From: an uncultured Cytophagia bacterium
GTDB taxonomy: Bacteria > Zhuqueibacterota > Zhuqueibacteria > Residuimicrobiales > Residuimicrobiaceae
DNA: 64,000 nt
NCBI GenBank assembly: GCA_964541895.1
Contig: CAZISM010000001.1
Span: 22,796 to 86,795 of the forward strand
Reading direction: 5' to 3'
The first letter of the stretch is position 1, and each line of letters begins with the position of its first letter. Below, one piece after another: positions 7,801-29,855 of this stretch. The position numbers and the translations under genes were made by a program. The notes under the pieces are model-generated. The model was not told the origin of the DNA. It saw only the letters and a program-made list of their open reading frames with translations, and made no database searches.

Positions 7801-9129
<1,329 letters not shown>

Positions 9130-9175
9130 CAGCGTTTCGATAAAACAGGGCCGGCCTGCCGCCGGCTGTGATGAC

Positions 9176-9207: not shown

Positions 9208-9351
9208 TGTGCCTGCCGCCTCCTCCTTCCATATACCCTTTTCATTTTGAAATGGGGCCATTTTAAAATGAAATGGTCCAGCCGAATTCCTCCATTTTCT
9301 TTAAATTGCCGTTATTCGTAAGTACTATTATAAACAATGATATGTGCGTAT

Positions 9352-9380
9352 TTGCTCAAAGTGGCATTTTTTGGCATAAT
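9352..9380 (+). promoter_or_regulatory. Sigma-70-like promoter: -35 TTGCTC, 17 bp spacer, -10 CATAAT
   Basis: Hexamers at 9352-9357 and 9375-9380 in an AT-rich intergenic region upstream of the CheY-like gene. Confidence 0.4.
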
Positions 9381-9477
9381 CATTGATAAGACATAGAGTG
9401 GTGATGCGAGGGCGATGGGATGGACAAACACTACTAACTATCTGGTTTCTCCCCCGGCTTTGTGGATTGGGAAGGTC

Positions 9478-9867
9478 ATGTTACGTATCCTTATAGTCGA
9501 TGATAATCGCAACTTTCGCACCTCTTTAACCATCGGTTTACGACGAGAAGGTTTTATGGTGGAATCCAGCGGCAACCCGGTCGAAGCGTATTCTTTGATT
9601 CAGGAGAGATTGTTCGACGCTCTGTTAACCGATTTGCGAATGCCTTACATTAGCGGGTTTGAGTTGGCGAAACTGGCCAGGCGTCAGCAGCCCAATATTG
9701 TAGTCGTTCTGCTTTCGGCGTATGATTTCAAGGATATGCTGGCAGAGCCGTCTGTGGAAAGGGATTTCATGAAATTGTCTAAACCGTTCGATATGCAGGA
9801 GCTGCTGGGCCTGCTATCTGCAAGAAAACAGGCAACAAAAAGGGAACATCATTTAATTCACCAGTAA
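9478..9867 (+). CDS. Single-domain CheY-like response regulator; likely start 9478, ORF track gives 9415
   Basis: MLRILIVDD..LTDLRMP..LSAY..KLSKPF receiver motifs. No output domain. GGAAGG RBS before 9478. Confidence 0.75.
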   Translation: MLRILIVDDNRNFRTSLTIGLRREGFMVESSGNPVEAYSLIQERLFDALLTDLRMPYISGFELAKLARRQQPNIVVVLLSAYDFKDMLAEPSVERDFMKLSKPFDMQELLGLLSARKQATKREHHLIHQ

Positions 9868-9899: not shown

Positions 9900-10313
9900 A
9901 TGGGACAGCAACAACTCTTATTAATCGTTCTGAGCGTCATCATCGTCGGAATCGCGGTGGTAGTCGGTATCAACATGTTTGGCGCTTCGGCCGCTTCTGC
10001 CAACCTGGAAGCCGTGTCGAATGATCTGCTGACCTTGGCTTCGGCCGCCCAGCAGTACTATGTAAAACCATCCTCCATGGGTGGTGGTGGCAATTCCTTT
10101 GCCGGCTTGTCTGCTGATGCGGCTGGCGTTGCCAAGCTGACCCCAAAAGCTTCCAACGACAATGGCACGTACAGTGTCAAGACCGCCGGCGACGCTACCA
10201 GTGTGGTTCTTTCAGGAGTTGGCAAGCATGACGGCGATGGTGATGATACCAACTGCACGGTGGACGTTACAGTGTACAACGATCACATTGCCACCACGAT
10301 CGTGAGCCGTTAA
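9900..10313 (+). CDS. Candidate major pilin-like protein (N-terminal hydrophobic helix, non-canonical leader)
   Basis: 137 aa. AGGAG RBS. N-terminus MGQQQLLLIVLSVIIVGIAVVVG followed by a Gly/Ser-rich secreted domain. Position matches pilS-pilR-pilA synteny. Strong terminator follows. Confidence 0.55.
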   Translation: MGQQQLLLIVLSVIIVGIAVVVGINMFGASAASANLEAVSNDLLTLASAAQQYYVKPSSMGGGGNSFAGLSADAAGVAKLTPKASNDNGTYSVKTAGDATSVVLSGVGKHDGDGDDTNCTVDVTVYNDHIATTIVSR

Positions 10314-10510: not shown

Positions 10511-11851
10511 GTGCGCGAATTTCGATATACAGGTCTGAATCTGCAGGAGAAACGGGTTATCGGCTATTTTGAAGCCGAAAACCTGCGGCAGGCCAAAAAA
10601 AGAGCAGAGATCATAAGCCGGCAATACGGCTTTCGCCTTACGGCTGTGCAAGCCAAGGCCGTCTTCCTCTATAAGGTGCAAGGGCGGGGCGGGGAGTGGC
10701 TGCGTGGGGAGCAGGAAGCATATACCCGGGAAGAGGTCGACCTGGCTCTGCGGCGCATGGGATTTGATCAGGTGTACGTGACCAAGCTGGTTCTCAACCT
10801 GAGCGGTAAACCCCCCTATTCTGATATAATAACGTTCATCCGACTCTCCGCCGATTTGTTGAAGGAAAAGCTGCCCTTTGACGAAATTCTGACTCTCCTT
10901 GAATCCGATATGTCCAATCGCGCCATGCGGCGCACGGTCAAGGAAATTCTTGCCGACTTGAAAAACGGCAAAGACGGCGAAGAAGCGTTCAATCGCCAGG
11001 CCAACAGTCTGGGAAAATTTCCCGCGCGTATGCTGGGGGTGGCCTCAAAAAGTGGTAACATGGCGGAGGTGTACGAGAACACAGCCAAGTTTCTTGAGAG
11101 GGATTATGAGTTTCGCAAGAGTCTTCGCAGTGCGCTGTTGCAGCCGTCGATCACCGTTTTGGCCCTGATGGGCGCGGTGGTGTTCTACATCGGCTATATT
11201 TTCCCCAAGACGGCGCAGCTGTTTGAAGACGTCGGCGCCAAGCTGCCGCCCATGACCCGGGCCAGCCTGGACCTCAGCCATTTTGTCCAGAACAACCTGA
11301 TGCTGATCATTATCACGATCCTGGCGCCCCCTGTGCTGTTCTGGCTTTTTATCCGTTCCGAAAAGGGGCAGATTCTGTTTGGTAAATATTTTATCAAAAT
11401 GCCCATCATCGGTTCGCTGTTTCATAAAATTTCCATAGAAATCTTTTGCCGCGTTTTTCATTCCATGTACAGCGGATCCGGTGAAAACATCGAAGTCATC
11501 CGTACGGCCGCCGAAGCCTGCAGAAACCGATACATGGAGAAGCGGATCAAGGAGGTGGCCATTCCGATGATGATGCGGGACGGCCGCGGCTTTGTCGAAT
11601 CGCTTAAATCCACCAACGTGTTTACGGAAAACGCGTTGAACCGTTTGAATGCCGGAGCGGAATCCGGAACATTGAAAAAGGTCACCTATCAGATAGCCAA
11701 TTTTTATGAGCGGGAAACCACCTATCGCATGCGTACGATCGTCGACTGGATTCAGATCCTGATTGCCTTTTTTATCATGATCGTGATGACACTGTTGACG
11801 ATTGTATCCTCGGAGACGGCGGTGGTGCAACCCAAAATGCCGGGAATGTAG
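10511..11851 (+). CDS. pilC: Type IV pilus inner-membrane platform protein PilC (GspF family); GTG start
   Basis: Two T2SSF repeats, three TM helices, PilC-like N-terminus FRYTGLN..G.FEAEN. Confidence 0.85.
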   Translation: MREFRYTGLNLQEKRVIGYFEAENLRQAKKRAEIISRQYGFRLTAVQAKAVFLYKVQGRGGEWLRGEQEAYTREEVDLALRRMGFDQVYVTKLVLNLSGKPPYSDIITFIRLSADLLKEKLPFDEILTLLESDMSNRAMRRTVKEILADLKNGKDGEEAFNRQANSLGKFPARMLGVASKSGNMAEVYENTAKFLERDYEFRKSLRSALLQPSITVLALMGAVVFYIGYIFPKTAQLFEDVGAKLPPMTRASLDLSHFVQNNLMLIIITILAPPVLFWLFIRSEKGQILFGKYFIKMPIIGSLFHKISIEIFCRVFHSMYSGSGENIEVIRTAAEACRNRYMEKRIKEVAIPMMMRDGRGFVESLKSTNVFTENALNRLNAGAESGTLKKVTYQIANFYERETTYRMRTIVDWIQILIAFFIMIVMTLLTIVSSETAVVQPKMPGM

Positions 11852-11853: not shown

Positions 11854-13638
11854 ATGCAAACCAAAGCCCCTGTTCCCAATGCGGTCATGGAAAAATTGTC
11901 CGGCAACGGCTTTTTTACCAAAGAGCGTCTGGAACAGGCCTTTAAAACCCTGGCCCAATCCTCCGGGCGACGATCGCTCAGCGACATTCTTATCAACGAC
12001 CTGGGCTATGATCGTCATACGGTGATGCAAAAGCTGTGCGAAGTGTATGCCTTTCGCGAAATCCGTTTGAATCCGGCGGCGCTGTCGGAAGGCTGGGTTA
12101 AATTCATCCAGAAATATTTCAAGTCGCTGGAGGAAAAGAACAAGAAGGCGTTCATCGAGCAAAAGATCATCCCCTTCGGATACAGTGAACGCAATCGGGA
12201 TGTGCTGATCTTCATCACCCCCGATCCCACCGTCCGCCGGGTGGCCGAAATTCTGCACCAGGCCGGCGTGGTCAAGTTTGAGCTGGCCTATGCCAAGCTG
12301 GAAGAGGTCAACGATCTGTTGACCAAGACGATGACCAGCGAAAACGAATACCTCAACAAGCTCAAAGAGGCCAGCAACGAGATCGCGCTGCAAAAGCTGG
12401 ATGAGGATGAGAAGGGGATTGATGAAGACGAGCTCAACGCGGCCATCAATAAAAGCCTGCTAGTCAATTTATTCGAGGCCGCTCTGATCGAGTCGGTCCG
12501 TCGCGGCTCCAGCGATATTCATATTATCCCGCGGGAGCACAACCAGACCGACATCTATTTGCGCGTCGACGGTCGCCTGCAACTGTGGCATCGACAGGAT
12601 TCGGTAAAGCCGGAGGCCTTTCTCGCTGTGGTCAAGGACCGTACCAAAAACGTCGATCGCTTTGAATGGGAGACGGCTCAGGACGGTTTCATACAACGGC
12701 AAATTGACAATTACACCATCCGCTATCGAGTTTCCATTTTACCCATTGTCTCCACCGCGCTGGCCCGCAAGTACGAGAGCGTCGTCATCCGTGTGCTCGA
12801 TGACCGCAAAGTGATTACCGATCTGGAGAAGCTGGGATTCGACGACTATGCCAAAAAGGAATTTGTCAAGGCGATCACCAAGCCGCAGGGCATGGTCATT
12901 CTCACCGGTCCGACCGGATCCGGAAAGAGCACCACCCTGGTGGCCGCTCTCAGCCAGGTCATGACGCCGGAGCTCAATATTCTGACGGTCGAGGATCCGG
13001 TGGAATACAACATTCGCGGCGCGCGGCAGCTCAAGCTGGGTAACAAGATGAACTTTGATCAGGCCATCCGCAGTATTCTTCGCCATGATCCGGATATCGT
13101 GATGGTCGGTGAAATCCGTGACGCCAAGACGGCGGAAATCGCCATCAAACTGGCCAACACCGGCCATCTGACCTTCAGCACCGTGCACACCAACGATGCC
13201 GCCAGTGTGGTTTCACGATTGTACAAGATGGGCATCGAGCCGTTTTTGATCGCCTATGCCATCAACCTGGTGGTGGCGCAGCGTTTGATCCGAATGCTGT
13301 GCAAGCATTGCAAAAAGCCGATCGAAAAGCTGGATCCCTCGATTCCGCTCTCCATGGGATTCAGCGAGGAAGAAGTTGCCCGAGCGCAGTTTTATCAGAC
13401 GGTCGGGTGTCCTAAATGCCGCAACGGCTACGCCGGCCGCAGCGGTATCCATGAAGTGTTGACCTTTACCAATCCGATTCGGCGTCTGATTTTCGAGGCC
13501 AAGGGAGAGGTCAACGAAGAGGCGATCAGAGACGAAGCGGTCCGAAACGGCATGTCCACGCTGCGTGCCGCCGCCCGGCGCCGCGCGCTGTTGGGACAAA
13601 CGACCCTGGAAGAGGTGGCCGCGGTGACCACCGAATAG
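11854..13638 (+). CDS. pilB: Type IV pilus assembly ATPase PilB (GspE family)
   Basis: T2SSE_N-like N-terminal domain. Walker A GPTGSGKST. Asp/His boxes. Tetracysteine CKHC..CPKC motif. Confidence 0.9.
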   Translation: MQTKAPVPNAVMEKLSGNGFFTKERLEQAFKTLAQSSGRRSLSDILINDLGYDRHTVMQKLCEVYAFREIRLNPAALSEGWVKFIQKYFKSLEEKNKKAFIEQKIIPFGYSERNRDVLIFITPDPTVRRVAEILHQAGVVKFELAYAKLEEVNDLLTKTMTSENEYLNKLKEASNEIALQKLDEDEKGIDEDELNAAINKSLLVNLFEAALIESVRRGSSDIHIIPREHNQTDIYLRVDGRLQLWHRQDSVKPEAFLAVVKDRTKNVDRFEWETAQDGFIQRQIDNYTIRYRVSILPIVSTALARKYESVVIRVLDDRKVITDLEKLGFDDYAKKEFVKAITKPQGMVILTGPTGSGKSTTLVAALSQVMTPELNILTVEDPVEYNIRGARQLKLGNKMNFDQAIRSILRHDPDIVMVGEIRDAKTAEIAIKLANTGHLTFSTVHTNDAASVVSRLYKMGIEPFLIAYAINLVVAQRLIRMLCKHCKKPIEKLDPSIPLSMGFSEEEVARAQFYQTVGCPKCRNGYAGRSGIHEVLTFTNPIRRLIFEAKGEVNEEAIRDEAVRNGMSTLRAAARRRALLGQTTLEEVAAVTTE

Positions 13639-13688
13639 TCGCCGGCCAACGCTTTCCTGACGTTAACGAATGACAAAGGATGCGGTTC

Positions 13689-14645
13689 ATGTCTGACATA
13701 CTTGTGGTGGATGATGATCCCGAAATACGGAGCTCGTTTGTGGAGATATTGCAGACGGCGGACATGCAGGTCGACACCGTAGCCGATGCGGATGAGGCGG
13801 CCAACAAAATCAAGGCAAAAAACTATGAGCTTATTCTGGTAGATTTATTGCTGCCGGGAGAGATCAACGGCATGTCTTTGATCGAATCCTTCCGCGCCCT
13901 GGTGGCCCAATCGTATATCATTGCCTATTCCGCCTACAGCGGACGTACTATTGCTGAAAAAGCGTTACGGGCCGGCGCCAACGGCTTTGTCCCCAAAGCC
14001 TATTTGAAAGATCATCTTCTGCAGACCGTTATGAATGTGTTAACCGGCCCCAAGGGCAAGACCATCCTGCCGGGCCCGGCGGCCGCAGCGCCCGAACCGT
14101 CGCCGGCACCGGCTCCTGCACCGGCTCCTGCACCGTTTTTGGAGACCAGGCCGGCCCAGGATGTAGTGCCGCTGCTGTTTCTTAACTTGCCCCGTCAACA
14201 GGTGCAGGAATTGCTGACGCTGGCTGACCAGCGTACGCTGCCGCGCGGCGATTCGTTCCTGGTGCAAAGCCAGCAGAATATCGTCACCATCGGACGCGGC
14301 CAGGCCGATCTGCTTTATCGCAACAGAAAAATAGGACAAATGAACGAAGGCGAAACCATCGGAGAAGCTTCCTTTTTCGACACCAGCAATGACAACCATG
14401 TATTCGCGCTGGTAGCAAAGAATGACTGCGTTTTGTACCTGTTTAATAAAAGCGATCTGAAAAACTATTTTAAGGATCATGGCAGAAATGTAACGCTTCG
14501 ATTCGCAGCCAACATCGTGTGGAGTGTTTCCAACACCATGATGAAATGCGTTAAAGAGCTCTATCGGACGGACGAAGTGCCGGTCAAAAGTGAATCCCTG
14601 TTTGAAAATAGAAAACCATGGTCGGCGGAGGTTCTGGTCAATTGA
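13689..14645 (+). CDS. Response-regulator receiver fused to a cyclic-nucleotide-binding (CAP effector) domain, no HTH; ORF track start 13680
   Basis: REC motifs ILVVDDD and LILVDLLLPG. (AP)n linker. cNMP-binding motif GETIGEASFF. No DNA-binding region at the C-terminus. Confidence 0.8.
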   Translation: MSDILVVDDDPEIRSSFVEILQTADMQVDTVADADEAANKIKAKNYELILVDLLLPGEINGMSLIESFRALVAQSYIIAYSAYSGRTIAEKALRAGANGFVPKAYLKDHLLQTVMNVLTGPKGKTILPGPAAAAPEPSPAPAPAPAPAPFLETRPAQDVVPLLFLNLPRQQVQELLTLADQRTLPRGDSFLVQSQQNIVTIGRGQADLLYRNRKIGQMNEGETIGEASFFDTSNDNHVFALVAKNDCVLYLFNKSDLKNYFKDHGRNVTLRFAANIVWSVSNTMMKCVKELYRTDEVPVKSESLFENRKPWSAEVLVN

Positions 14646-15907
14646 CGGAGAACAGCCAACATAAGGACAATGGCCTGTACCGGTTCGCGCCGGAGGGGGT
14701 GGAGCTGTTCGAACGGCTCATCCGTCGGGTACCGCCCGATCTCGAAGGCTACGATCGCCAGGAGCAGCTTGCCCGGTTGATGGCTGAATGCACCCACGAA
14801 CAACGGCGGCTTTTGCGCGCGGTTGTTGATGGCTTTCTGCTGCATATGCGTCGGTTGGAAGCTTCGGATATTGAAATCGGCGGCGCCCATGCCGGCAGTT
14901 CCATATGGCTCCGCATCCAGGGCCGTAAAATGGCACGGCCGGAAATGGGCAAATGGAGCCTGCCGCAATCCGATGTGCTCATCCATGCGCTGTTGACCGC
15001 CAAACAGAGCGAGCGGCTGCTGAGAAATCGAGCCGTCGATTTTTCCTATGCCATGGAAAAAGAGGGTGCCACGCTTCGCTGGCGCGCCTGCGCCTATTTT
15101 GACCTGGGTGTTCTGGCGCTTAACATGCGCACCATCTCTCACAAGGTGTTTCCGTATCAGAAATTGAATATACCGGATCCTATTACCAAGAGCCTTTCCC
15201 TGGCCCATGAAAAACAGGGATTGATCCTGTTGACCGGCATCACCGGATCCGGAAAAAGCACCACCATGGACAGCATCATCGACGCCAACAATCAAACGGT
15301 CGATGGCCATATTGTTATCGTCGGGGACCCCATTGAGTATATTCATGAATCCAATCGATGTATCATTCGCCACCGGGAGGTGGGGCGCGATGTGCCTTCC
15401 TTCAAGGACGGAGCGGTGCAGGCGCTTCGCCAGGATCCGGATATCATCGTCATCGGCGAAATGCGCGATCCGGAAACCATCATGACCTGTCTGGAGATCG
15501 TCGATACCGGCCACAAAGTGTTTTCCACGCTGCATACCGGTTCTGCCGTGGAAACCATCGACCGCATTGTGGCAGAATGCCCCGGCAATGAACAGGATCG
15601 TGTGCGGAATCGGCTGGCGGACGTGTTACGGGTGATTATCTCCCAAAAGCTGATTCCAGGCACCGAAGGCAAACTGGTGCTGGCTAAAGAAATTTTATTG
15701 GTATCGTCGCCGGTTCGCGCCGCCATTCGCAACCGCAATACACACGAAATCTATCAAATGATAAGCGAATCCGGAAAATGGGGCATGATGACCCTGGAAC
15801 AGGATCTGCTGCGGTTGTGGAAAATGCGTCTCATCACCGAAGGCGATGCCTTTGACTACGCCAACAATAAACGTCGCATGCAGGAATTGATGTATCAGAG
15901 GGTGTGA
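14618..15907 (+). CDS. pilT: PilT-like type IV pilus retraction ATPase with about 55-aa N-terminal extension; alternative start 14780
   Basis: Walker A LLTGITGSGKST. GEMRD Asp box. His box HTGSAVETIDR. ASDIEI corresponds to the PilT N-terminal ASDLHL. Overlaps the upstream gene by 28 nt if started at 14618. Confidence 0.85.
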   Translation: MVGGGSGQLTENSQHKDNGLYRFAPEGVELFERLIRRVPPDLEGYDRQEQLARLMAECTHEQRRLLRAVVDGFLLHMRRLEASDIEIGGAHAGSSIWLRIQGRKMARPEMGKWSLPQSDVLIHALLTAKQSERLLRNRAVDFSYAMEKEGATLRWRACAYFDLGVLALNMRTISHKVFPYQKLNIPDPITKSLSLAHEKQGLILLTGITGSGKSTTMDSIIDANNQTVDGHIVIVGDPIEYIHESNRCIIRHREVGRDVPSFKDGAVQALRQDPDIIVIGEMRDPETIMTCLEIVDTGHKVFSTLHTGSAVETIDRIVAECPGNEQDRVRNRLADVLRVIISQKLIPGTEGKLVLAKEILLVSSPVRAAIRNRNTHEIYQMISESGKWGMMTLEQDLLRLWKMRLITEGDAFDYANNKRRMQELMYQRV

Positions 15908-15913: not shown

Positions 15914-17470
15914 ATGAAAAAGTATGCCCTGGGCATATATATAGACGGCACGGTGTTGCACGCGGCTCTGTTGAGCAAGCAGACCGGCCGTCCCTATATC
16001 GAAAATCTGGAACGGTTTCAGCTGTTCGGTCCGCTCGAGCAGCGGGAAATCATCGAGCAGCACAAGCGGGCCGTGGCGGGCAATGAGACGGTGCTGAAAA
16101 AGGATGATCCATTCGGCCTGGATGCCCTCTTCAAGCGGACCGATTCCATCATCAGCGATACGGAATCCAAAAACAACATCGACGTCATCTTTAAGATACT
16201 GACCACGTTCTGCCCGCGGGGCACACAGATCGCCTTCAATCTGTCCGAAGTCTTTACGTTCTACAAGCATCTGCCGCCGATCAAGGAGGCGTCGGGGCTC
16301 AAGCACAAAAAAGCCGTATGGCAGGCGTTCACGGGTGAAATGCACTCGGAGCCGAAGAATGAGAACGTCGGCTCTTTTTCGCTGCCGGATCAATCGGTTT
16401 TTGCCCTGCTCCACAACGACCCGCTGGTGTTTTCATCGCTGCTGATGGATGCCATCAGCATGCTGCATTCGACACCGCCCAAGATAAAGTTGGTGGATTC
16501 GGTGGAATTCGTGCTCGCGCACGAAATCATGCATACCTTTCAGTTGACCGATCAGGATCATACGGCCGTTATCCTGTTCTCCAACAACTGCACGCGCATC
16601 TTTTTTATGCGTGGCCATCTGATTCATACGGTGTTACCGACGATTTATGAAGGCTCCGAATCCGAGACGGTCTGCGATACGGCGTTCGCCAAAATATTGT
16701 TCGAATTCGACACCGGCAAACTGGTGGCCTTGAACCGTATCATCCTCGCCGGGGATGCAAGCCGGATGAGGGCGGAAACCTATTTTCGTGACAAATGGCC
16801 GGCGGCAACCGTCACTCGCCTAGAAATGGTCCGTCCGGTTCTCAATGAAAAACTGGAAGCCATGGAGGGGCGAATCTCGGCGTTCTCCGTCCCCATCGCC
16901 CTGGGCCTGAAAACGCTGGATGAGCATCCGAAAGCGCCTTATGATCATAATTTTTTACCGTCTCGCATCAAGGAAAAGCAATCGGTGTATCGAATCGCCT
17001 GGCACGGCGTGCTGCTGCTCTCGATTCTGTTTCTGTTTGTCATCTTTATGACCTACCAGTCGGTCCGCAGCAGCCAGAATCTGAGCCGGGCCCGAAGTGA
17101 AGGCAAATTGCTCTCTGTGCAGTTGATGGATCTGCAGAATGTGGCCAATGAAGTCGACAGCCTGCGCGCGAAAATCAGTATCCTCGAAAAGGGCACGGCG
17201 TTGATCGATTCCCTTAACAAGAACACCATGCGATGGACGCCGGTTCTGCGTTCTTTTTCAGAAGCCTTTGATAAGGCAGGGCCGTTTTCGATCGTCAAGG
17301 CGGAAACCAATAACAGCAGGCAAATGATCGTTACCCTCGAAGTCAATCGGGAAGAGCAGGTCGCCGCCCTGGAAAGAGTGCTGCGGCCCTTCACCGTCAC
17401 CAGCGTGCTGCGCAACCAGGAAGCGGACGATCGCTGGATGCAGGTCGAATTTACGTGCATGATAAACTGA
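15914..17470 (+). CDS. PilM-PilN-like fusion: actin-like cytoplasmic domain, one TM helix, periplasmic coiled-coil domain
   Basis: N-terminus YALGIYIDGTVLHAALLS is PilM-like. TM helix near residue 355. Coiled-coil and PilN-like periplasmic domain follow. Confidence 0.6.
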   Translation: MKKYALGIYIDGTVLHAALLSKQTGRPYIENLERFQLFGPLEQREIIEQHKRAVAGNETVLKKDDPFGLDALFKRTDSIISDTESKNNIDVIFKILTTFCPRGTQIAFNLSEVFTFYKHLPPIKEASGLKHKKAVWQAFTGEMHSEPKNENVGSFSLPDQSVFALLHNDPLVFSSLLMDAISMLHSTPPKIKLVDSVEFVLAHEIMHTFQLTDQDHTAVILFSNNCTRIFFMRGHLIHTVLPTIYEGSESETVCDTAFAKILFEFDTGKLVALNRIILAGDASRMRAETYFRDKWPAATVTRLEMVRPVLNEKLEAMEGRISAFSVPIALGLKTLDEHPKAPYDHNFLPSRIKEKQSVYRIAWHGVLLLSILFLFVIFMTYQSVRSSQNLSRARSEGKLLSVQLMDLQNVANEVDSLRAKISILEKGTALIDSLNKNTMRWTPVLRSFSEAFDKAGPFSIVKAETNNSRQMIVTLEVNREEQVAALERVLRPFTVTSVLRNQEADDRWMQVEFTCMIN

Positions 17471-17471: not shown

Positions 17472-18434
17472 GTGGTCCCTATGTCCTACGCTGTACGAAA
17501 TACGTTGATTATCGCCACAATTTGGGCTGCCATTTTATTTTGCGGCATTTATTATATCTACGGCGTGCAGCAAAAGCGCGAACGGATTCAGCTGGTCGAT
17601 AACATGGGTAAGCGAAAACGGCTGGATGATCTGCAGCGGCTCAAGCAGGACCGTACGGTGCTGCAAAACGAAAAAGCACGGCTTTTGGAGCTGAGTTCGG
17701 GCCGAATGGGCGTTCTGGCCTCACAGGAGTCGCCGGGCGAAACCTACGATTATCTGTTGCGGGAGATGCGCAGGAATCGCTTCGACCTGCAGTTCAGTCT
17801 GGAAATGAACCGTGAAGATTCGTACATGGGAGTGCTGCGGCGGACCTATACGCTTAATGGAGCAGGCGCTTTTACCGATCTGTATTACCTGATGTCCTAT
17901 CTGGAGAGCGGCCCTCTCTTTTATGATATCCACTCCGTAAAGCTCGAACGGGCCAATCGCACCGCGCAGGAGAAGCGGGCCCACCGCAAAGGCCATGTCC
18001 AGTTCACGCTGACCCTGGCCGGCTTTAACCGCCACGAAGGCCCGAACATCGCTTCCGTGGAACGGACCGGAACCTTGCCGGAGCGCATCGCTGAAATGGT
18101 CACCAATAGGGAAGTAAAGACCGTCTTGCCGGACGCCGCGCCGGCGGCTCCGGAGGTGACGGCGCCCGCCAAAATGGCCCAGGAAACAAAGCCGGCGCCA
18201 CGCATCAACAGCGATGGGCTGCCGGAGGTGGATGAAGCGTGCTCACTGCTGGCGGTGACAGCCCAAAGTGTGCTTGTACGCGATCGCCGCGGATCTACCG
18301 TTCGATTGCGGGCCGGGGACCGGGTTTGGCAGGGACGGGTGGCGGAGATACATCCGGCGGACAAACGCGTCGTATTTGAAATTAATCAGAACGGAAATGC
18401 CGAACGCTTTTCGCTTACAACGACCATTAAATGA
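17472..18434 (+). CDS. PilO-PilP-like fusion: N-terminal TM + coiled coil + PilO-like domain, Ala/Pro linker, PilP-like beta domain
   Basis: TM NTLIIATIWAAILFCGIYYIYG. C-terminal VLVRDRRGSTVRLRAGDRVWQGRVAEI resembles PilP. Confidence 0.55.
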   Translation: MVPMSYAVRNTLIIATIWAAILFCGIYYIYGVQQKRERIQLVDNMGKRKRLDDLQRLKQDRTVLQNEKARLLELSSGRMGVLASQESPGETYDYLLREMRRNRFDLQFSLEMNREDSYMGVLRRTYTLNGAGAFTDLYYLMSYLESGPLFYDIHSVKLERANRTAQEKRAHRKGHVQFTLTLAGFNRHEGPNIASVERTGTLPERIAEMVTNREVKTVLPDAAPAAPEVTAPAKMAQETKPAPRINSDGLPEVDEACSLLAVTAQSVLVRDRRGSTVRLRAGDRVWQGRVAEIHPADKRVVFEINQNGNAERFSLTTTIK

Positions 18435-20168
18435 GTGACGATCATGTGGAAAAACATCGTTCAAGCCATTGCCATACCCGTCATCATGTCGGCGCAATGG
18501 CTTTTTGGCCAAAATGAATTGCCCAGGGAGTACGTTCCGGCTGAGGAGATGATCAGCCTGAACAGCAACCTGGATTTCATTTCAGCGCTGGATCTCATCA
18601 GCGAGTATTCGGTTCGTTTTACCGGAAAACCGCTATTTGATCCCACCCGGCAGGAGGGAGCGATCGGCATAGAGATCTCGACCATGCCCTGGGAAAAGGC
18701 GCTGCAAGCCATTTTGAGCCGGCGGGGACTCTGGTATAACGAGCGCGATCACTTTTTTCAAATCGTAACGCCGGTCGAAAAGAACCAAAAAGAGGAAAAT
18801 ACCGTCCCGGACGACATCAAGTTCAAGCTTGGCCATCGCGAAGTAAAAATTGAAACTATATTTTTTGAAGGCGATCGAAAGGCCCTGTCGGAAATCGGCA
18901 TCGACTGGACCAGCTTTTACGACGGCAAGGTGGATCTGACCGCCAGTCAAATGACCGCCCTGAACGTGTCCGAAGATATGTTTACTACCTCCGTCAAAAT
19001 ACCCAAATCGCTGTTCAGCGTGGACATTAAAGTGTTACTCAAGGTGCTGGATTCACAAAATATCGGACGGGTGATTGCACAACCGCAAGTGACGGTAACA
19101 GAGGCCAATGAAGGCAAGATTCAGGTAGGTCAGGATTTTTCCATAAAGACCAGGGACTTTGCCGGCAACTTGATCGACCGGTTTTTCAGCACCGGCACCA
19201 TCCTTCAGGTCACGCCGTACCTCTATTTTGATGAAAGGCGTGTGCCGGTGATTTTTATCAAGGCGCATGTAGAGCGCAGCCAGGCGTTTCCAGACGTCGT
19301 CAGCACCATCATCAAAAAGTCAGAGGCCAATTCCTACGTGCAGCTGTTCGATGCGGAAGAAACCATGATCGCCGGACTGTATTCCACGGAAAACAATCAC
19401 CTGCGCAAAGGCGTTCCGATTCTCAAGGATCTGCCCTGGTGGCTGCTGGGCCTCCGTTACGTGTTCGGCTTTGAGCGACAGGAAGAAGTGCAGAAAGAAT
19501 TGATTATTATCCTCAAAGCCAGCCTGCTGCCGGAGGTGTACTCCCGACTCGACCAGTACAAATCCTCGGCCAAACCGAAAACCATGGAAGACAAGCTGAA
19601 TCGATTCCGACAGCCTTTTCTGAGACCAGGAGCCGGGCTTCCCCAAAGCACACCGCCGCCAGAGTCCAAAACGCTCATGAACGATCAGACCGCTCAGGAC
19701 CCGAGCGTTGCACCGACCCCGGAGGCTGTGGAAAAATTTTCCAGCCTCCAGGACCAGGGACCGGTTCAGGCCGACATGGTTAGCGACACCCAGGAGGCGC
19801 CTTCGAAAAAACTGCGACCGGTAACGGAGAGCGAGGGAAGCAAATCAATTTCGGCACCCTATTTCCCCGATTTTACGCCGGTGACAAAAACGGAAAAGAT
19901 CGCGCCCCCGGAGCCGGCCGGCGATGTCTACAGAGGCGTTATCAGTAAAGTGGTCAATGATATGGTCGTCATCGAGTGGCATCGCGGAGCGGATCCTGCA
20001 GCCCTGCCGCTGCAGGATTTAACCGTATTCCGCCGAATGGCGGACAGCAAGCAGTACCGGGCCGTTGGCAAGGTGGCCATGGTTCGGACCATGGAGGCAA
20101 AAACCGTCGCCCGATGCAGGCCGGGCTCTGTTATCCTGCCAGGCGATCAGGTGGTCGTTAAATTATAA
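18435..20168 (+). CDS. pilQ: Secretin (PilQ/GspD family), compact, with Pro/Ser/Thr-rich linker and extra ~80-aa C-terminal domain
   Basis: Secretin motifs RVIAQPQVTVTEANEGKIQVGQ and KGVPILKDLPWWLLGLRYVFGF. About 110-aa low-complexity linker, then a beta-rich C-terminal domain. Confidence 0.8.
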   Translation: MTIMWKNIVQAIAIPVIMSAQWLFGQNELPREYVPAEEMISLNSNLDFISALDLISEYSVRFTGKPLFDPTRQEGAIGIEISTMPWEKALQAILSRRGLWYNERDHFFQIVTPVEKNQKEENTVPDDIKFKLGHREVKIETIFFEGDRKALSEIGIDWTSFYDGKVDLTASQMTALNVSEDMFTTSVKIPKSLFSVDIKVLLKVLDSQNIGRVIAQPQVTVTEANEGKIQVGQDFSIKTRDFAGNLIDRFFSTGTILQVTPYLYFDERRVPVIFIKAHVERSQAFPDVVSTIIKKSEANSYVQLFDAEETMIAGLYSTENNHLRKGVPILKDLPWWLLGLRYVFGFERQEEVQKELIIILKASLLPEVYSRLDQYKSSAKPKTMEDKLNRFRQPFLRPGAGLPQSTPPPESKTLMNDQTAQDPSVAPTPEAVEKFSSLQDQGPVQADMVSDTQEAPSKKLRPVTESEGSKSISAPYFPDFTPVTKTEKIAPPEPAGDVYRGVISKVVNDMVVIEWHRGADPAALPLQDLTVFRRMADSKQYRAVGKVAMVRTMEAKTVARCRPGSVILPGDQVVVKL

Positions 20169-20244
20169 CTATCGTGTCCTTGTGGCATGCGACGAGGCCG
20201 CACATCATATTGTGTGGTAACACGTTAAACCGGGAATGGTCATC

Positions 20245-23200
20245 ATGAACAGAAAAATTCTGCCGGCTATTCTGCTTACCCTGGTTGGGTTGTGGAGTTG
20301 TGGTGGTGAGAAAGAACAGATTACCAGCAGTTATGCCGTGGATGATTTCCAGGCCGCTCAGATCCGTATTTTGGCGGACGGGCTCGCATCCACTACGCTT
20401 ACCGTTCTGGTCATGGATAGTGTTAACATGCCGGCTGCCAATATTCGGGTCTTTTTCAATACCAGCGCCGGCACCATAACCAAACAGAGCGTCACTTCAG
20501 AGTACGGCAAAGCGACCGCCACGCTGACGGGTGTGGCCAGCGAACTGGATATCACAGCGGTTGTTACAGCCACGGTAATTGACAGCTCCGCCCTGAAGAA
20601 AAGCATTCCTTCTCTATACCGGCTTTCTTTCGCCGGCGAGCCCGGAGAGGCGATACCGTCGTTAAAAAAGGCCGGAGCCGAACCTGGTCCCAGCGCAACT
20701 GTCGAAGTAACGTTTGCAGGCATTTCGTTTTCTTCCGAGCTGGAGAAATCCGTTTTGCCGGCCGATGGAATCAGCCAGGGCCAGGTGCAGATCATCTTGC
20801 GGGAAACCGTTACGGGCAAAAATATCGCCGGCGCGAAATTATCCCTAAGGGCTCGCAAGATTCACATCGTCGGTGAAACCATCACCTCGGAACGTGGTCA
20901 GGCGGAAGTGGCCTTTACGGCCGTCAGTCAGGCCGGCGACGACACGCTGTACATCGACTATGGAGCTTTTAAAAGCAGAGTGCATGTGCTCAAGTTTATG
21001 GCCACCAGACTCAATCTGACACCCGTTCACAGCAAGTTGAAATCGGACGGCAAAAGCCGCACCTCGCTGACGGCTCAATTGGTCAATCATGCCAATAATC
21101 CCGTGGTCGGGGCGACGATTCGCTTTACCTGTGATCAGGGCGTCATATCGGGAACCGCGGTTACCAACAGCCAGGGTGAAGCCATAGCCGAGCTGACCAG
21201 TGCAGCCGCCAACCGTAACGACGTTAAAGTTGTTGCCGATTTTAACGGCGTGCTGGATACGGCATGGGTGGATTATGTAAGCTCCACGGCGGCATGGTTG
21301 GAGCTCTCTTCGGAGGCGGCTGTCCTGCGAGACGGTCAGACCAAATTGACGATGAAAGCGGTGCTGACCGACGATTATCAGCTGCCGGTCGCAGATGCCT
21401 TGATCCGGTTTTCCACTTCTATCGGCAGCGTGGACAGCGTGGTAAAAACCAACAACGCCGGTGAAGCGATGATCCGATATATGCCGGATGCCGGCGAGAG
21501 TGACGTTGTAGCCGCCATCACCGCCAGTCACGATCTGCTGCGCAAAACCAGAACGGTCAAGCTGACCGGCATCAGTTTCAGCTCTGATTCTGCACCGGAT
21601 TCTATCCTGGCGGACGCCAGATCGCAATCCACGATTTCGGTGCAACTGAAAACGACCACCACCCATACGGCGCTGACGGGCGTACCGGTCTATTTTTCAG
21701 CCAGCAAGGGCCGTATCGATAACATGGTGACAACCGACCAGTACGGGATAGCCAGGGCAACGCTGACCTCCAACACGACACCCGGCTCCAGTTCCATCCT
21801 CATCACTGCCGCCGGCTTGAGTAAAACCGTAAACGTTTTTTTCCTCGGTTCTGTCGCCCAGAAAATGACCATACAGCCGCTGGGCAGCCAAAAGCCGGCT
21901 CGCGATGGCATAACTTTGCAGTCCTTCCAGATTCGTCTGCTGGACAATTTGAATAATCCGCTGGCGGATCGCAAAATTGTACTCTCCTCGCTGTACGGTC
22001 GCATCGACAGTCTGGCGACCACCGGCTCCGATGGCACGGCCGTCGTGCAGTATCGGCCTGACGCCAACAGTGCTGATGTGACGGAAACCATCACCGCCCG
22101 CTGCGGGGATCTGGCTACCAACCTGTCGTTCAAGCTGTATGGCATCTCTTTGGCGCTCTCGGTCAGTCCCGACTCACTGCCGGCAGACGGCAAATCCACG
22201 GCAGCCGTCACAGCCCAGTTGAAATACACCTCGGCCAATACGGTGATCCAGGGTGCCACCGTATCGTTCAGCTCTTCTCTGGGCAGCATTCCAACAGCCA
22301 GCGTCAGCGACGGGCTGGGAGTGGCGACCACAAAATTCACGGCGCCGATTACCGCCGGCCTGGCCACTATAACGGGCACGTATGGCGGATTGTCCAAAAG
22401 TGTTTCTGTTAAATTGGTGGCGGACACGCCGTCCACCATTCTGTTGTCGGCGGCACCTGAATTCATCTGGGTGACAGAAACCGGCAACCTGGATTTGACT
22501 TCCATCACGGCAACGGTGCTGTCCACCACCGGCGAAATCATCGGCAACGAGACCGGTCTTCGTTTCGCCATTCGCAACGGTCCCAACGGCGGTGAACAGA
22601 TCACTCCGTCCAGTGGCGCTTCCAGCCGCGAGACCTCGGTACTGCGCACGGTGCAGGGCCGGGCGCGAGCGACGCTGAAATCCGGCATCCGCTCCGGTAC
22701 GGTTGAAATCCAGGCGTATCTCGCCGAGCGGCCTGAAGTCATTTCAAGGAAATCACTGATTGTGATCCGGTCCGGACCGCCCTATATCTATGTCAATCCG
22801 GCCAACAAGAACGATTTCACCACACACATGACGCTGGCGACCGATTATCTGAATCTGTACGGCTGGAATTTTGTCAATACCTTCAACATCAGCGTGTACG
22901 TCGGCGATAAATACAACAATCCGGTCGAAGAGGGCACCACCGTCTATCTGACCACAACGGCGGGCATCGTCACCACAGATGTGAAAACCAATGCGGTAGG
23001 GAAAGGTACCGCGATTCTGATGACAACCAATCCGCGGGCCTACGTCAACCCCAAAGACGGCACAGCCCTGTCACCGCTGCGGATCCCGAATCCGAACGAT
23101 GCCGGATTGATGTTGCCGAACGCTCTGCCTACCTTTGAGGGCTGGCGGGTCAAAGATCTTTTCGATCATACCGGCGAAGGGGATGGCTGCCTGACTCTGC

Positions 23201-23610
23201 TGGCCTATACTCATGGCAAGGACCAGAAATCGCAGGATGCGGTCGTGTTTTCGACTCACAACCTCATCACCAGCGCCGGCATGTATGTCATGGAGGTGAC
23301 GTCTTCGAAATCGGAGTTGCGTCTGGGCGAGTCCACGGTGATCAATATTCTTCTCTACGACATCAATGGCAAACCGCCTTCGGCCGGATCTTCGCTGACC
23401 GTGAGCGCCACGGCAGGCAAGATTTCGGAGGCCAATCTCATGCCCTCGGGCGATCAATACGGTTATGGCGCCACCCGCTACAGTACCACGCTGGTGAACA
23501 CGCTCGATCCGTTGCAGGATAAAGCCACTATATCTGATGTCAATGTCCGTTTGAACAGCCCCAACGGCATGATGAGCCGAACGATCGGCATCCAGCTCTA
23601 CATCAATTAG
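20245..23610 (+). CDS. Large Ig-like (Big_1) repeat lipoprotein of about 1120 aa (invasin/intimin-type repeats); ORF track start 20236
   Basis: Lipobox LVGLWSC. At least eight ~100-aa repeats with Big_1 signatures (TLTAQL..VVGATIRF, AAVTAQLKYT, ISVQLKTT). Confidence 0.8.
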   Translation: MNRKILPAILLTLVGLWSCGGEKEQITSSYAVDDFQAAQIRILADGLASTTLTVLVMDSVNMPAANIRVFFNTSAGTITKQSVTSEYGKATATLTGVASELDITAVVTATVIDSSALKKSIPSLYRLSFAGEPGEAIPSLKKAGAEPGPSATVEVTFAGISFSSELEKSVLPADGISQGQVQIILRETVTGKNIAGAKLSLRARKIHIVGETITSERGQAEVAFTAVSQAGDDTLYIDYGAFKSRVHVLKFMATRLNLTPVHSKLKSDGKSRTSLTAQLVNHANNPVVGATIRFTCDQGVISGTAVTNSQGEAIAELTSAAANRNDVKVVADFNGVLDTAWVDYVSSTAAWLELSSEAAVLRDGQTKLTMKAVLTDDYQLPVADALIRFSTSIGSVDSVVKTNNAGEAMIRYMPDAGESDVVAAITASHDLLRKTRTVKLTGISFSSDSAPDSILADARSQSTISVQLKTTTTHTALTGVPVYFSASKGRIDNMVTTDQYGIARATLTSNTTPGSSSILITAAGLSKTVNVFFLGSVAQKMTIQPLGSQKPARDGITLQSFQIRLLDNLNNPLADRKIVLSSLYGRIDSLATTGSDGTAVVQYRPDANSADVTETITARCGDLATNLSFKLYGISLALSVSPDSLPADGKSTAAVTAQLKYTSANTVIQGATVSFSSSLGSIPTASVSDGLGVATTKFTAPITAGLATITGTYGGLSKSVSVKLVADTPSTILLSAAPEFIWVTETGNLDLTSITATVLSTTGEIIGNETGLRFAIRNGPNGGEQITPSSGASSRETSVLRTVQGRARATLKSGIRSGTVEIQAYLAERPEVISRKSLIVIRSGPPYIYVNPANKNDFTTHMTLATDYLNLYGWNFVNTFNISVYVGDKYNNPVEEGTTVYLTTTAGIVTTDVKTNAVGKGTAILMTTNPRAYVNPKDGTALSPLRIPNPNDAGLMLPNALPTFEGWRVKDLFDHTGEGDGCLTLLAYTHGKDQKSQDAVVFSTHNLITSAGMYVMEVTSSKSELRLGESTVINILLYDINGKPPSAGSSLTVSATAGKISEANLMPSGDQYGYGATRYSTTLVNTLDPLQDKATISDVNVRLNSPNGMMSRTIGIQLYIN

Positions 23611-23642: not shown

Positions 23643-24131
23643 ATGAATAATGCAGAAGTTATTCTTACGATAGGCTCGCTGGTGCTGCTGACGCTTTTTT
23701 CGTTGTCCTTGAACGGTTCCATCGTTCAGGATAACATCCAGATGTACCAGAGTGCCCAGGTCACTGAAGCGCTGGTACTGGCTCAACGCTTCATCGAAGC
23801 AGCCGAGACCGCTCAATTCGACGAAAACAGCAGCGCCACCATACCCTCGTCGTTTTCGTCGACGCTCGGGCCGGAAAACGGCGAAGTCTATCCCAATTTT
23901 GACGATATCGATGATTATAACGGGCTATTGATTACGCAGAACTGGGGAGGCAGCATTTCCTTTACGGTCCGCATCCAGGTGTATTATGTTTCAGAGTCGT
24001 CGCCGTTTACTCAGACCCTATTGCGCACGTATAAAAAGTTTATGGAAGTGCAGGTGACCTCGGCCCAGGATGTAACCGTTAACGTGAAACTGGAACGCCT
24101 GTTCGCTTTTCACTATTTCTTTGTAGAGTAG
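23643..24131 (+). CDS. Minor pilin/pseudopilin-like protein (N-terminal TM helix, non-canonical leader)
   Basis: 162 aa. N-terminus MNNAEVILTIGSLVLLTLFSL. Tandem with two similar genes after the secretin. Confidence 0.5.
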   Translation: MNNAEVILTIGSLVLLTLFSLSLNGSIVQDNIQMYQSAQVTEALVLAQRFIEAAETAQFDENSSATIPSSFSSTLGPENGEVYPNFDDIDDYNGLLITQNWGGSISFTVRIQVYYVSESSPFTQTLLRTYKKFMEVQVTSAQDVTVNVKLERLFAFHYFFVE

Positions 24132-24134: not shown

Positions 24135-24722
24135 ATGAATTCGCTCCTGTACATCACCGTTGGATTGATCATTATCGGCATGCTGACGCTGTTGCTCATA
24201 CAAATGGACACCACCGTTAAAATCCATTCCACCTTCATGGTTCATGCTATGGCGAACGGAGGCAACCTGAATGTCATTAGCCGCATCCTGGAGTTTGATC
24301 TGCGCAAAATCGGCCATGGCCTGCGCGCGCCTTTGCGCGCCATCCATGTCGCCGACAGTTCCAGAATCCTGTTCTCGTATGACCAGCAACCGTTCAGCCT
24401 GTTCGACTCCATTCGCGTGGATTACCAGTTGAGCGACAATGCGGTTACGCCCAATCCAAGAGACAAGCTGCTGACCCGGACGGTGAACGGCAATCGACAA
24501 ACCCGGATCTCCATGGGCGTGACCCGGTTGCGCTTTCGCTATTTCAACCAGTCCGGCACCGAGCTGCCGACGCCGGTGGTGTCGGATTCCCTGTCAAAAA
24601 TCAAATCCGTTCGACTGCTCCTGGCCATCCAGAATACCGAGAGCATCAACGGCAAGTATGCAACGGCGTATTACAGCACCCAGATTTCGCCGAAGAATCT
24701 TTTGGTCCGTTACGGACGTTGA
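24135..24722 (+). CDS. Minor pilin-like protein (PilW/GspJ-like architecture)
   Basis: 195 aa. N-terminal helix LLYITVGLIIIGMLTLLLIQ. 3-nt gap to previous gene. Confidence 0.5.
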   Translation: MNSLLYITVGLIIIGMLTLLLIQMDTTVKIHSTFMVHAMANGGNLNVISRILEFDLRKIGHGLRAPLRAIHVADSSRILFSYDQQPFSLFDSIRVDYQLSDNAVTPNPRDKLLTRTVNGNRQTRISMGVTRLRFRYFNQSGTELPTPVVSDSLSKIKSVRLLLAIQNTESINGKYATAYYSTQISPKNLLVRYGR

Positions 24723-24733: not shown

Positions 24734-26002
24734 ATGGGACGATACTCCTCGATGATGGTCATCATGCTTTTCATGGGCGTTCTGTTCATGCGCCTGCAAA
24801 CGCAAAACACCATCGTGCAAGGCTGGAATCAAAAGATGGTGCAGTACAATCGACTGCGGGTTCACAATATTGCCAATGGGGGCGTCACCAATGCGCTGAA
24901 CGCTCTGACCCTGGACGTGAACGCCTCTGCAGCGGTAAGCAATGTCAGTCTGGCCGGCGGCACTTACTCCTACTCCTTCGCGCGCAAGGAGCAGGATGCC
25001 ACTTTGGGGGTTACGGATATCCGCGTCACCGCCATCGGCCGCTATCGCGATTTGAACGACACCGTTGTCGTACTGCTGACCCGCCCCTCATTTTCGCGCT
25101 ACGCTTATTTTACCAATGACGAAGGAACCATCTGGTTTCAGACCGGCGATACACTGACCGGCCCGGTTCATACCAACGGCTATTTCAATATGCAAGGCTA
25201 TCCGGTCTTCTATGGTAAAATAACCAGTCACGGAGTATACAGTTCCTCAAGTCCGTACCGAAAGTATTCGTCTGGCGTTACCAGCCCGGCTTTCGACGGT
25301 GGCTCGGAGTGGGGGGTGCCGACGCTGGAAATGCCAACCGTTATTCCTGCCGATTTGAAAGCGGCGGCGCAATCGGATGGTCTCTATATCGGCACCTATT
25401 CCTATGTATGGATGGAATTCCTGAGCAACGGCACCGTCAAGGTGGCTAAATCCAATTCCAGCAGCACGCCCTCTTCCGGTTCGTATGTCAGCTATGATCT
25501 GAGCTCTTTGAACGGTGTGTTCCTGGTGGAAAAATCAGGCACCACGCCCGTCGTACATGTGAAAGGTACGGTCAATGGCCAGGTAACGGTTGCCTCCTCA
25601 GGTAACATAAAAGTGACGGGCAATCTGCTGCTGGCGGATAATCCGCAGACCAATCCCGCCTCGGACGATATCGCGGGTTTGTGTGCGGCAAAAAATATCA
25701 TTGTAACCAATAATTCGCTGGATGATGATCGTATCATTCAGGCCACCTGCATGACCATGAACACCTCCGTTTCCAGTACAACCAATTTTAATGTGGAAAA
25801 CTACAGTACAACCCGGTACGGCACTCTGAGCCTGCTGGGAGGGCTGATACAACGGGGTCGTGGAGCAGTAGGTACGGTGGGTACGGCCACCACTCGAAAA
25901 GGATATATCAAGGATTATGTCTGGGATTCCCGGCTGCAGGACATAGCACCGCCCTATTTCCCCATGCTCTTTGTGCTGCGCAAAATATCCTGGTATGATT
26001 AA
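24734..26002 (+). CDS. PilX-like minor pilin/pilus assembly protein
   Basis: 422 aa. N-terminus MMVIMLFMGVLFMRLQTQNTIVQGWNQ resembles the PilX_N helix followed by Q/N-rich segment. Large beta-rich body. Confidence 0.5.
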   Translation: MGRYSSMMVIMLFMGVLFMRLQTQNTIVQGWNQKMVQYNRLRVHNIANGGVTNALNALTLDVNASAAVSNVSLAGGTYSYSFARKEQDATLGVTDIRVTAIGRYRDLNDTVVVLLTRPSFSRYAYFTNDEGTIWFQTGDTLTGPVHTNGYFNMQGYPVFYGKITSHGVYSSSSPYRKYSSGVTSPAFDGGSEWGVPTLEMPTVIPADLKAAAQSDGLYIGTYSYVWMEFLSNGTVKVAKSNSSSTPSSGSYVSYDLSSLNGVFLVEKSGTTPVVHVKGTVNGQVTVASSGNIKVTGNLLLADNPQTNPASDDIAGLCAAKNIIVTNNSLDDDRIIQATCMTMNTSVSSTTNFNVENYSTTRYGTLSLLGGLIQRGRGAVGTVGTATTRKGYIKDYVWDSRLQDIAPPYFPMLFVLRKISWYD

Positions 26003-27646: not shown

Positions 27647-27844
27647 AGCCACCTCCATGTTAATTGGCACAAGAAGAAATTACCATTTTTATCTTTGTAA
27701 AGCAAGCATTTATGATATACACCGCTGTGCGCCTACCTATTCCATAACATAGATGGTGCAGCTTGTGTTCCAGAATTTCAAAAATGCGCTATATTTTTCC
27801 GGCTAAAACTCTTATATTAATTTTACTGTGGAAAGGATCGTGTA

Positions 27845-29611: not shown

Positions 29612-29855
29612 TAAATTATTTTAAAAAATGCTTGCTTATTGATCATTTTATGCATACCTTCCATAGAGGCCATAACATTTCGCTATGGTTAGGGGTTAGC
29701 TAGCTTACGCTCTCGGGAATTTTGGTCCTCACCATCTCATTTCACAGCATCTCGCATTCGCACACTTTGTAGAGCATCCCAAGTCTTTGCACACCGTTCA
29801 ATTTCCAATCACAGTGACGTAATTGTCAAAGGCATCGTATTATCAGGGAGGCACT

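Follow-up and report, generated by a model that had tools for sequence, protein, structure and literature searches.

Here, we describe a large lipoprotein, which we call BIG, whose gene lies between a secretin gene and three minor-pilin-like genes in a 64,000-nucleotide stretch of DNA (the window) from an uncultured bacterium of the Zhuqueibacterota. The gene occurs together with type IV pilus genes in a wide range of related lineages, and this co-location is not due to chance. BIG is probably an outer-membrane or cell-surface accessory of the pilus that has apparently gone undescribed, and a cell-surface partner of the secretin or of the machine would be the most plausible class of explanation for it.

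A preliminary description, made from the sequence alone, had presented positions 20245-23610 as a gene for an immunoglobulin (Ig)-like Big_1 repeat lipoprotein between the secretin and minor-pilin genes, and the open reading frame (ORF), the Pfam matches, the lipobox and the pilin-like neighbours all bear this out. The coordinates given there fit, on the forward strand, a form of 1121 amino acids (aa); the length given with them, 1124 aa, fits a start at 20236. The longest ORF indeed runs from 20236 to 23610 (+) and encodes 1124 aa from its first ATG, and the ATG at 20245 yields 1121 aa, the length also called for a homologue that is 93% identical (P0001). BIG is our name for the product of the ORF at 20245..23610, and residue numbers follow the 1121-aa form throughout. 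We collected 44 homologues, the closest at 93, 77, 51 and 48% identity, and an exact-sequence look-up of BIG returned no identical protein on record. The features of the gene are as follows:

20245..23610, + strand: BIG, 1121-aa multi-Ig lipoprotein (ORF; Pfam Big_1 E=2.7e-56 and Invasin_D3 E=1.8e-52; 44 homologues)
20245..20301, + strand: signal peptide with lipobox, predicted acylated Cys19 followed by GGEKEQ (read from the translation)
20374..22359, + strand: seven canonical Big_1 domains, aa 44-705, a variable-length stalk (repeats found with a self-derived profile)
22450..23607, + strand: conserved C-terminal module, aa 736-1121, three Ig-like sandwiches (AlphaFold2 model; BLAST against homologues)

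The N-terminus, MNRKILPAILLTLVGLWS followed by C19 and GGEKEQ, reads as a lipoprotein signal, with a 19-residue signal peptide ending LWS-C. A cysteine directly follows the hydrophobic stretch in almost all of the 81 listed BIG homologues; a strict lipobox pattern was matched in 46 of these, and the remainder were read by eye. Behind the anchor, the Big_1 match covers 8 stretches (188.1 bits, gathering cut-off 34.9) and the Invasin_D3 match 7 (176.3 bits, cut-off 33). A repeat profile derived from the protein itself resolved seven canonical Big_1 repeats, at aa 44-104, 173-234, 267-327, 362-422, 456-515, 553-613 and 647-705, along with a Big_1-like domain at 879-934; the first repeat begins approximately 25 residues past the lipobox cysteine. 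No tandem repeat was found at the DNA level in the gene, which argues that the array is old. Among the loci from the genome scan described below, members of the family range from 458 to 2031 aa with the C-terminal module kept, and among the closer relatives of the window protein from 742 to 1138 aa, a spread consistent with differing numbers of Big_1 repeats.

The segment at aa 736-1121 is common to most full-length relatives (segment BLAST against the 44 homologues) and is usually better conserved than the repeats, with 51-59% versus 33-48% identity in homologues P0003-P0007. An AlphaFold2 model of this module, built on an 18-sequence alignment, has a mean predicted local distance difference test score (pLDDT) of 87 and a predicted template modelling score (pTM) of 0.76, and comprises three Ig-like sandwiches, the second with an insertion of approximately 50 residues. 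A Foldseek search of the PDB with the model recovered Ig arrays only. The top TM-score belonged to FdeC (4e9l, TMq 0.39), and further matches included intimin D0-D1, S-layer proteins and complement MG domains. Sequence matches and model together thus describe a protein of about ten Ig-like domains and nothing else. Against 1.84 billion representative proteins, a profile of the module gave 5676 matches at E<=1e-3 and 1129 at E<=1e-30, the latter being clusters at 50% identity and a count that takes in giant repeat proteins with shared Ig units. Giant proteins, of up to 7473 aa, carry 10-45 stretches that match the first two Ig units of the module, as is typical of extracellular adhesins; a full-length match to the module at the C-terminus marks the BIG family proper.

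Searches for other domains in BIG were negative. There was no Pfam match at E<=1 to PilY1, vWA, the IAT beta-barrel, LysM or lectin domains, and NCBIfam assigned no family; with a C-terminal model that is all Ig, the preliminary description was right that BIG lacks a PilY1 or von Willebrand domain. Pfam likewise returned no TPR or PulS_OutS match. No C-terminal Por_Secre_tail or TIGR04183-type sorting domain of the type IX secretion system was found (Pfam E<=1, NCBIfam E<=0.01), and cargo of that system usually has a type I signal, in place of which BIG carries a lipoprotein signal. Ig-like families matched below threshold were bMG3 (26.6 bits against a cut-off of 34.9), MG4 and Glyco_hydro2_C5. 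The bacterial alpha-2-macroglobulins combine an MG array with a thioester domain, whereas BIG has only these sub-threshold bMG3 and MG4 matches and, in Pfam, no thioester or A2M domain.

To follow the gene beyond the window, 185,579 species genomes were scanned with the C-terminal module as query, which gave 200 relatives, of which 80 loci were kept. Pilus-machine genes in these loci were marked with hidden Markov models grown from the window proteins, and linkage counts rest on the 46 loci that have 5 kb or more on each side. KSB1, Zhuqueibacterota, Calditrichota, Latescibacter, Kryptonia and Ignavibacteria appear in the record titles of the loci, and some bins bear other labels. One pilus-machine marker or more lies near BIG in 38 of the 46 loci (83% within 10 kb) and at least three in 35, and the secretin gene is no more than 2 kb away in 26. 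By a rough estimate, chance would place BIG within 10 kb of a pilus cluster of about 15 kb in a multi-megabase genome less than 1% of the time.

This linkage is kept in at least five gene orders (m162, m195 and m422 denote the minor-pilin-like genes of the window, and OMP260 a partner gene of BIG, all described below):

Window type: secretin, BIG, minor pilins
L005 type: PilMN, PilO, BIG, OMP260, x, secretin, PilT
Kryptonia type: minor pilins, then further along secretin, BIG
L102 and L104: m422, BIG, PilT
L051 and L055: PilC, BIG, OMP260, m195, m422, an order of which only part is kept in L061-L063

Relatives at 77%, 51% and 48% BIG identity have the same gene order as the window; at 39% identity the order is rearranged and the pilus linkage kept. 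Even at 24-29% identity BIG is found in pilus clusters, where its gene lies between PilMN/PilO and the secretin gene, follows a short secretin gene directly, or comes one gene past a secretin gene. The machines that it accompanies are canonical (with Peptidase_A24 and N_methyl pilins) and non-canonical alike. In a reverse scan of a metagenome sample centred on m422, which started from a narrow m422 alignment, BIG stands in front of m162 in 6/6 close loci (at least 51% m422 identity) with upstream DNA visible. Absence from orthologous pilus loci, an outcome for which the preliminary description had allowed, is therefore not what is seen, the same gene standing at the same place in every close relative examined, and the functional tie to the pilus locus that it had proposed is strengthened by a linkage that survives several rearrangements.

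The genes around BIG in the window form a type IV pilus-like cluster whose machine is non-canonical:

9900..10313, + strand: putative major pilin, 137 aa, starting MGQQQLLLIV (same N-terminus upstream of pilC in L111, also in L107)
10511..11851, + strand: PilC-like platform protein (Pfam T2SSF 1.6e-29)
11854..13638, + strand: PilB-like assembly ATPase (Pfam T2SSE 1.2e-101)
13680-14645: response regulator with a cyclic nucleotide (cNMP)-binding domain, between the PilB and PilT genes (position kept in L001 and L170)
14618..15907, + strand: PilT-like ATPase, 429 aa (Pfam T2SSE 3.3e-36)
15914..17470, + strand: p518, probable PilM-PilN fusion (C-terminal profile matches Myxococcus PilN 3jc8, E=0.011)
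17472..18434, + strand: p320, bitopic protein in the PilO/PilP position (gene order; sole match DotF, weak, E=0.058)
18435..20168, + strand: secretin, 577 aa (Pfam Secretin 3.2e-20 at aa 205-364; best NCBIfam match PilQ)
23643..24131, + strand: m162, minor-pilin-like, starting MNNAE with Glu5 counted from Met1 (N-terminal hydrophobic helix)
24135..24722, + strand: m195, minor-pilin-like (profile matches Thermus pilin TTHA1219, E=7.7e-4, and other pilin N-termini)
24734..26002, + strand: m422, large modular ComZ-like pilin (Pfam DUF4900 2.3e-10; AlphaFold2; Foldseek)

The BIG gene is separated by 76 nt from the secretin gene and by 32 nt from m162, and a promoter and terminator scan gave sites no more numerous than in shuffled sequence. 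The fusion assigned to p518 is probable on weak evidence, namely its PilN match and a p518 equivalent in L005 and L007 that carries PilM_2; gene order alone suggests PilO/PilP for p320. BIG itself was considered as a PilP and rejected on weak positional grounds, since the PilP position is held by p320 in the window and by proteins of 159-164 aa in L005 and L007, all of whose PilP identity we only infer. Past aa ~364, the window secretin continues into a low-complexity linker of about 110 aa rich in Pro, Ser, Glu and Gln and then a C-terminal domain of about 75 aa (aa ~390-577 in all), an extension that the Kryptonia-type secretins (~410 aa) do not have.

The minor-pilin genes named in the preliminary description can be considered real, given the pilin matches of m195 (to TTHA1219) and m422 (to ComZ), though they are non-canonical. 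The three genes adjoin one another in 23 loci. An AlphaFold2 model of m422 (pLDDT 92) has an N-terminal pilin helix at residues 2-60 and a large beta-rich domain, and its only significant fold match in the PDB is the Thermus competence pilin ComZ (6qvi, Foldseek E=5e-8). The two share the pilin helix and the beta-rich domain at a sequence identity of just 12-14%, and sequence profile searches of the PDB with m162 and with m422 gave no match. For Thermus, ComZ has been reported to belong to a DNA receptor associated with the tip (PMC6561018). By analogy, the minor-pilin block of the window resembles the Thermus competence set of ComZ with PilA2 and PilA3, m195 having its own profile match there; the window pilins differ in that they apparently lack a leader peptide. 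Their longest possible ORFs begin with MGQQQLLLIV (putative major pilin), MNSLLYITVG (m195) and MGRYSSMMVIM (m422), m162-type proteins start MNNAEVILTIG or MGQKELLLTLG with Glu at position 5 from Met1, and comparable leaderless starts occur at 4967-5368 in L111 and 3657-4145 in L124. No Pfam pilin match above threshold was obtained for the putative major pilin and no N_methyl match for the three genes downstream of BIG, and of the ORFs scanned none was recognised as a prepilin peptidase gene. The pilins of the cluster look as if encoded in mature register, which would be unusual for type IV filaments. Some loci have two tandem m162-m195-m422 sets: L092 (metagenome contig OMKS01000463.1), L094, L130, L131 and L135.

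In most other lineages BIG has a partner gene. Immediately downstream of it, 40 of the 72 loci with enough downstream sequence encode a protein of ~258 aa (OMP260), with a signal peptide and a beta-rich sequence, of which one member weakly matches OMP_b-brl (4e-4) and OmpA_membrane (4.7e-3); we consider it a putative outer-membrane barrel. Examples are found at L005 14045-14830, L028 11159-11947, L033 11153-11932 and L048 11101-11949, beside 42 further loci. With search filters off, nothing better than E=1.6 was found as a homologue in the window, in window-type loci or in Kryptonia-type loci. The C-terminal extension of the window secretin was considered as a replacement and rejected, as a low-complexity linker and a small domain are not barrel-like.

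The presence of OMP260 goes together with the residues that follow the lipidated cysteine. A motif C-[ST]-x-K-x-P-[LIM]-D-P-T-S occurs in 26/34 loci with OMP260 and 0/30 without it, and an acidic run (at least 3 D/E at +2 to +8) in 1/34 with it and 11/30 without. The acidic runs of relatives read CGKDEEK, CGKDDDK, CDQDEDK and CGEDEDL, and the window protein has CGGEKEQ. A similar export signal, which sends lipoproteins to the cell surface, has been reported in Bacteroidetes: C. canimorsus has K-(D/E)2 or Q-A-(D/E)2, B. fragilis SDDDD and F. johnsoniae SDDFE (PMC5080379). CGKDEEK and CGKDDDK match K-(D/E)2. The window clade resembles the surface lipoproteins of that phylum (SusD-like proteins, SiaC constructs, MucG) in motif, a lipobox cysteine followed by a polar or basic residue and acidic residues. 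We regard the acidic runs, and OMP260 with its motif, as two different features, each of which may suggest a route to the cell surface.

The second of these features invites comparison with the inverse autotransporters (intimin, invasin and FdeC; type Ve). BIG shares with them a Big_1/Invasin_D3 stalk array, the fold matches of its C-terminal module (FdeC and intimin D0-D1, as above) and, in sister lineages, a small putative outer-membrane barrel encoded right beside it. It differs in that they carry an N-terminal 12-stranded IAT beta-barrel in the same polypeptide, whereas BIG has no IAT_beta match at E<=1 and an N-terminal lipid anchor instead, the barrel being a separate gene that is absent from the window. 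They also have a C-type lectin tip, where the model of aa 736-1121 shows only Ig-like sandwiches, BIG has no LysM domain, and its gene lies in a pilus cluster. OMP260 with its co-varying motif may therefore be likened to a two-gene version of the intimin/invasin layout of barrel plus Big_1 passenger.

From these data we tentatively favour, at somewhat less than even confidence, the view that BIG works with the pilus as an Ig stalk displayed on the cell surface and anchored by a lipid. The grounds for it are the lipid anchor, the conserved distal module, the variable length, Ig units of adhesin type and, in sister lineages, the barrel partner. BIG would be made from the same transcription unit as the non-canonical machine and held in the outer membrane by its acylated Cys19, displayed as a stalk that most likely stands on the cell surface. 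The seven Big_1 domains may form a rod, and the ten-domain protein could reach a few tens of nanometres, as estimated from typical Ig dimensions, with the three-domain C-terminal module as its distal, partner-binding end. So placed, BIG would act alongside the pilus and not on it, as a short-range holdfast or docking element for the fibre or for what a retracting pilus brings, and the ComZ-like m422 would supply the tip module of the pilus itself. A broader proposal, which we consider doubtful, is that BIG, with OMP260 in most lineages, constitutes a module of the outer membrane, not recognised before, that belongs to the type IV pilus machines of the FCB group and neighbouring candidate phyla. 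This would be a split-intimin-like stalk whose distal module docks the fibre, its ComZ-like tip or captured material, serving in the window a machine with apparently leaderless pilins.

Several observations weigh against the surface-stalk view. The distal module is 52-53% identical between a pair of genomes whose machine genes are 39-58% identical, and such machine-like conservation is as compatible with a self partner as with an external ligand. In many lineages BIG sits inside a pilMNOPQ-type block beside the secretin gene, a position more typical of a structural machine component. As the window clade lacks OMP260, the barrel argument would apply to the window by analogy only. The window motif GGEKEQ has two non-adjacent Glu and no two consecutive acidic residues, a weaker match to an export signal validated in Bacteroidetes only, and the window host is not a Bacteroidetes, its closest named relatives being KSB1. 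In some distant loci of the same machine class (L111, L116, L124, L127) the secretin gene comes last and BIG is absent. Eight of the 46 well-flanked loci have no pilus marker: L028 and L033, in which BIG and its partner OMP260 stand alone away from pilus genes, and six that encode Ignavibacteriaceae proteins of ~470 aa. With some machines lacking BIG and some BIG genes lying away from pilus genes, the coupling is not obligatory; BIG is a frequent accessory that stays linked, and not a universal core part.

The main rival, which we judge unlikely, holds that BIG is a periplasmic accessory of the secretin, with its lipid in the inner leaflet of the outer membrane and its C-terminal module bound to the secretin or the alignment complex as a pilotin-like assembly factor, peripheral ring, tether or plug. 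Secretins commonly have outer-membrane lipoproteins associated with them (PilF/PilW/Tgl, GspS, BfpB-BfpG; compare also the non-lipoprotein ring protein TsaP), and BIG is likewise a predicted outer-membrane lipoprotein whose gene is usually beside that of the secretin. The two genes are immediate neighbours in several independent gene orders, 26/46 loci have a secretin gene at a distance of 2 kb or less, and in the L005 type BIG is embedded between pilO and the secretin gene. A module conserved at the same rate as the machine proteins points the same way, and the cluster genes scanned with Pfam included none for a TPR-type pilotin. However, a 4-fold variation in length (458-2031 aa) fits poorly in a fixed-width periplasm or a stoichiometric ring. 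BIG is 5-20 times larger than the known secretin-associated lipoproteins, all Ig, variable in length and absent from some loci of the same machine class; the pilotins among them (PilF/PilW/Tgl, GspS/PulS) are small and have a TPR or PulS fold, whereas BIG has 1121 aa of Ig domains behind its lipobox. Moreover, some BIG-OMP260 pairs lie away from any pilus genes, and a periplasmic lipoprotein needs neither a barrel partner nor a co-varying motif after its cysteine.

We find it improbable that BIG is cargo moved through the secretin by the pilus or a pseudopilus, or an adhesin docked on the minor-pilin tip complex in the manner of PilY1. Parallels for cargo include the type II lipoprotein substrates PulA, SslE/YghJ and MtrC/OmcA and the pilus-dependent secreted proteins TcpF and CofJ. 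Lipoproteins do reach the cell surface through type II systems, and such substrates, a class without a defining sequence signature, resemble BIG in being encoded beside a secretin-containing type IV filament machine. The machine here, by contrast, has a PilT-like retraction ATPase and PilM/N-like parts and so looks like a type IVa pilus and not type II secretion, BIG has no enzymatic or cytochrome domain, and OMP260, where present, offers a secretin-independent route. As for the tip, the conserved C-terminal module could serve recognition or docking, and in the window BIG is encoded directly upstream of three minor-pilin-like genes. PilY1, the type IVa tip adhesin, is also a large non-pilin protein encoded beside minor pilins, and the preliminary description had drawn this parallel. 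It does not carry through: the placement upstream of m162, m195 and m422 is found in the window and its close relatives but not in L005-type or Kryptonia-type loci, the gene standing elsewhere outside the minor-pilin block, between pilO and the secretin gene or beside pilC. BIG also differs in being a lipoprotein with neither the PilY1 propeller nor vWA (Pfam, NCBIfam). A PilY1-kind tip adhesin is unlikely because the N-terminus, with its conserved cysteine, would be triacylated and difficult to carry on a fibre tip, because m422 would already give a ComZ-like tip module, and because the position of BIG relative to the minor pilins varies.

Least probable is that BIG is an Ig-repeat protein of generic surface or envelope type, either an adhesin or S-layer-like, whose co-location with pilus genes reflects co-regulation or history with no mechanistic tie, a reading to which the eight loci without a pilus marker, the spread of such Ig arrays in giant adhesins and the S-layer proteins among the fold matches lend some support, but one that sits badly with a linkage of 83% against a chance expectation below 1% and with its survival through repeated rearrangements across phyla.

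Ig-repeat envelope and adhesin proteins are well known; what is apparently undescribed is the conserved association of BIG with type IV pilus machines. Source annotations of its homologues read only 'Ig-like domain-containing', 'invasin domain 3-containing' or 'adhesin/invasin', and full-text literature searches turned up no account of Big_1 lipoproteins at pilus loci, of pilins with DUF4900, or of pili in KSB1, Ignavibacteria or Calditrichota. What is known of type IV pili comes almost entirely from Proteobacteria, Myxococcus, Thermus, cyanobacteria and Firmicutes, and here a large protein family in KSB1, Calditrichota, Latescibacterota, Kryptonia and related lineages is tied genetically to the pilus machines. 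Were BIG a surface partner of the pilus, it would represent a new accessory class for the machine and offer a handle on particle attachment and on polymer or DNA uptake by sediment and subsurface bacteria. The pairing of lipoprotein motif and barrel would provide a testable case of lipoprotein surface display outside Bacteroidetes, and the apparently leaderless pilins of the same locus are of note in their own right.

Further genes lie on either side of the cluster. Just upstream of the putative major pilin gene, at 6678-9867, are a histidine kinase (6678-7793), an NtrC-type regulator (7801-9129) whose translation, read by eye, has GESGTGKE and ESELFGH motifs, and a single-domain receiver (9415-9867); together they look like a PilS/PilR-like arrangement. 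After the cluster come a coiled-coil protein with a C-terminal OmpA-like peptidoglycan-binding domain (26147-27670, - strand) and a lipoprotein of 547 aa whose single Big_1 domain is C-terminal (2.5e-9; 29823-31466, + strand), both of which keep their position in L001 and L170. The latter was considered as a second member of the BIG family and rejected, as only one Big_1 domain is common to the two. Lastly, the window that contains the cNMP-binding response regulator also encodes, at 48770-50881 (- strand), a CHASE2 sensor fused to an adenylate/guanylate cyclase, and a regulatory link between the two is possible.

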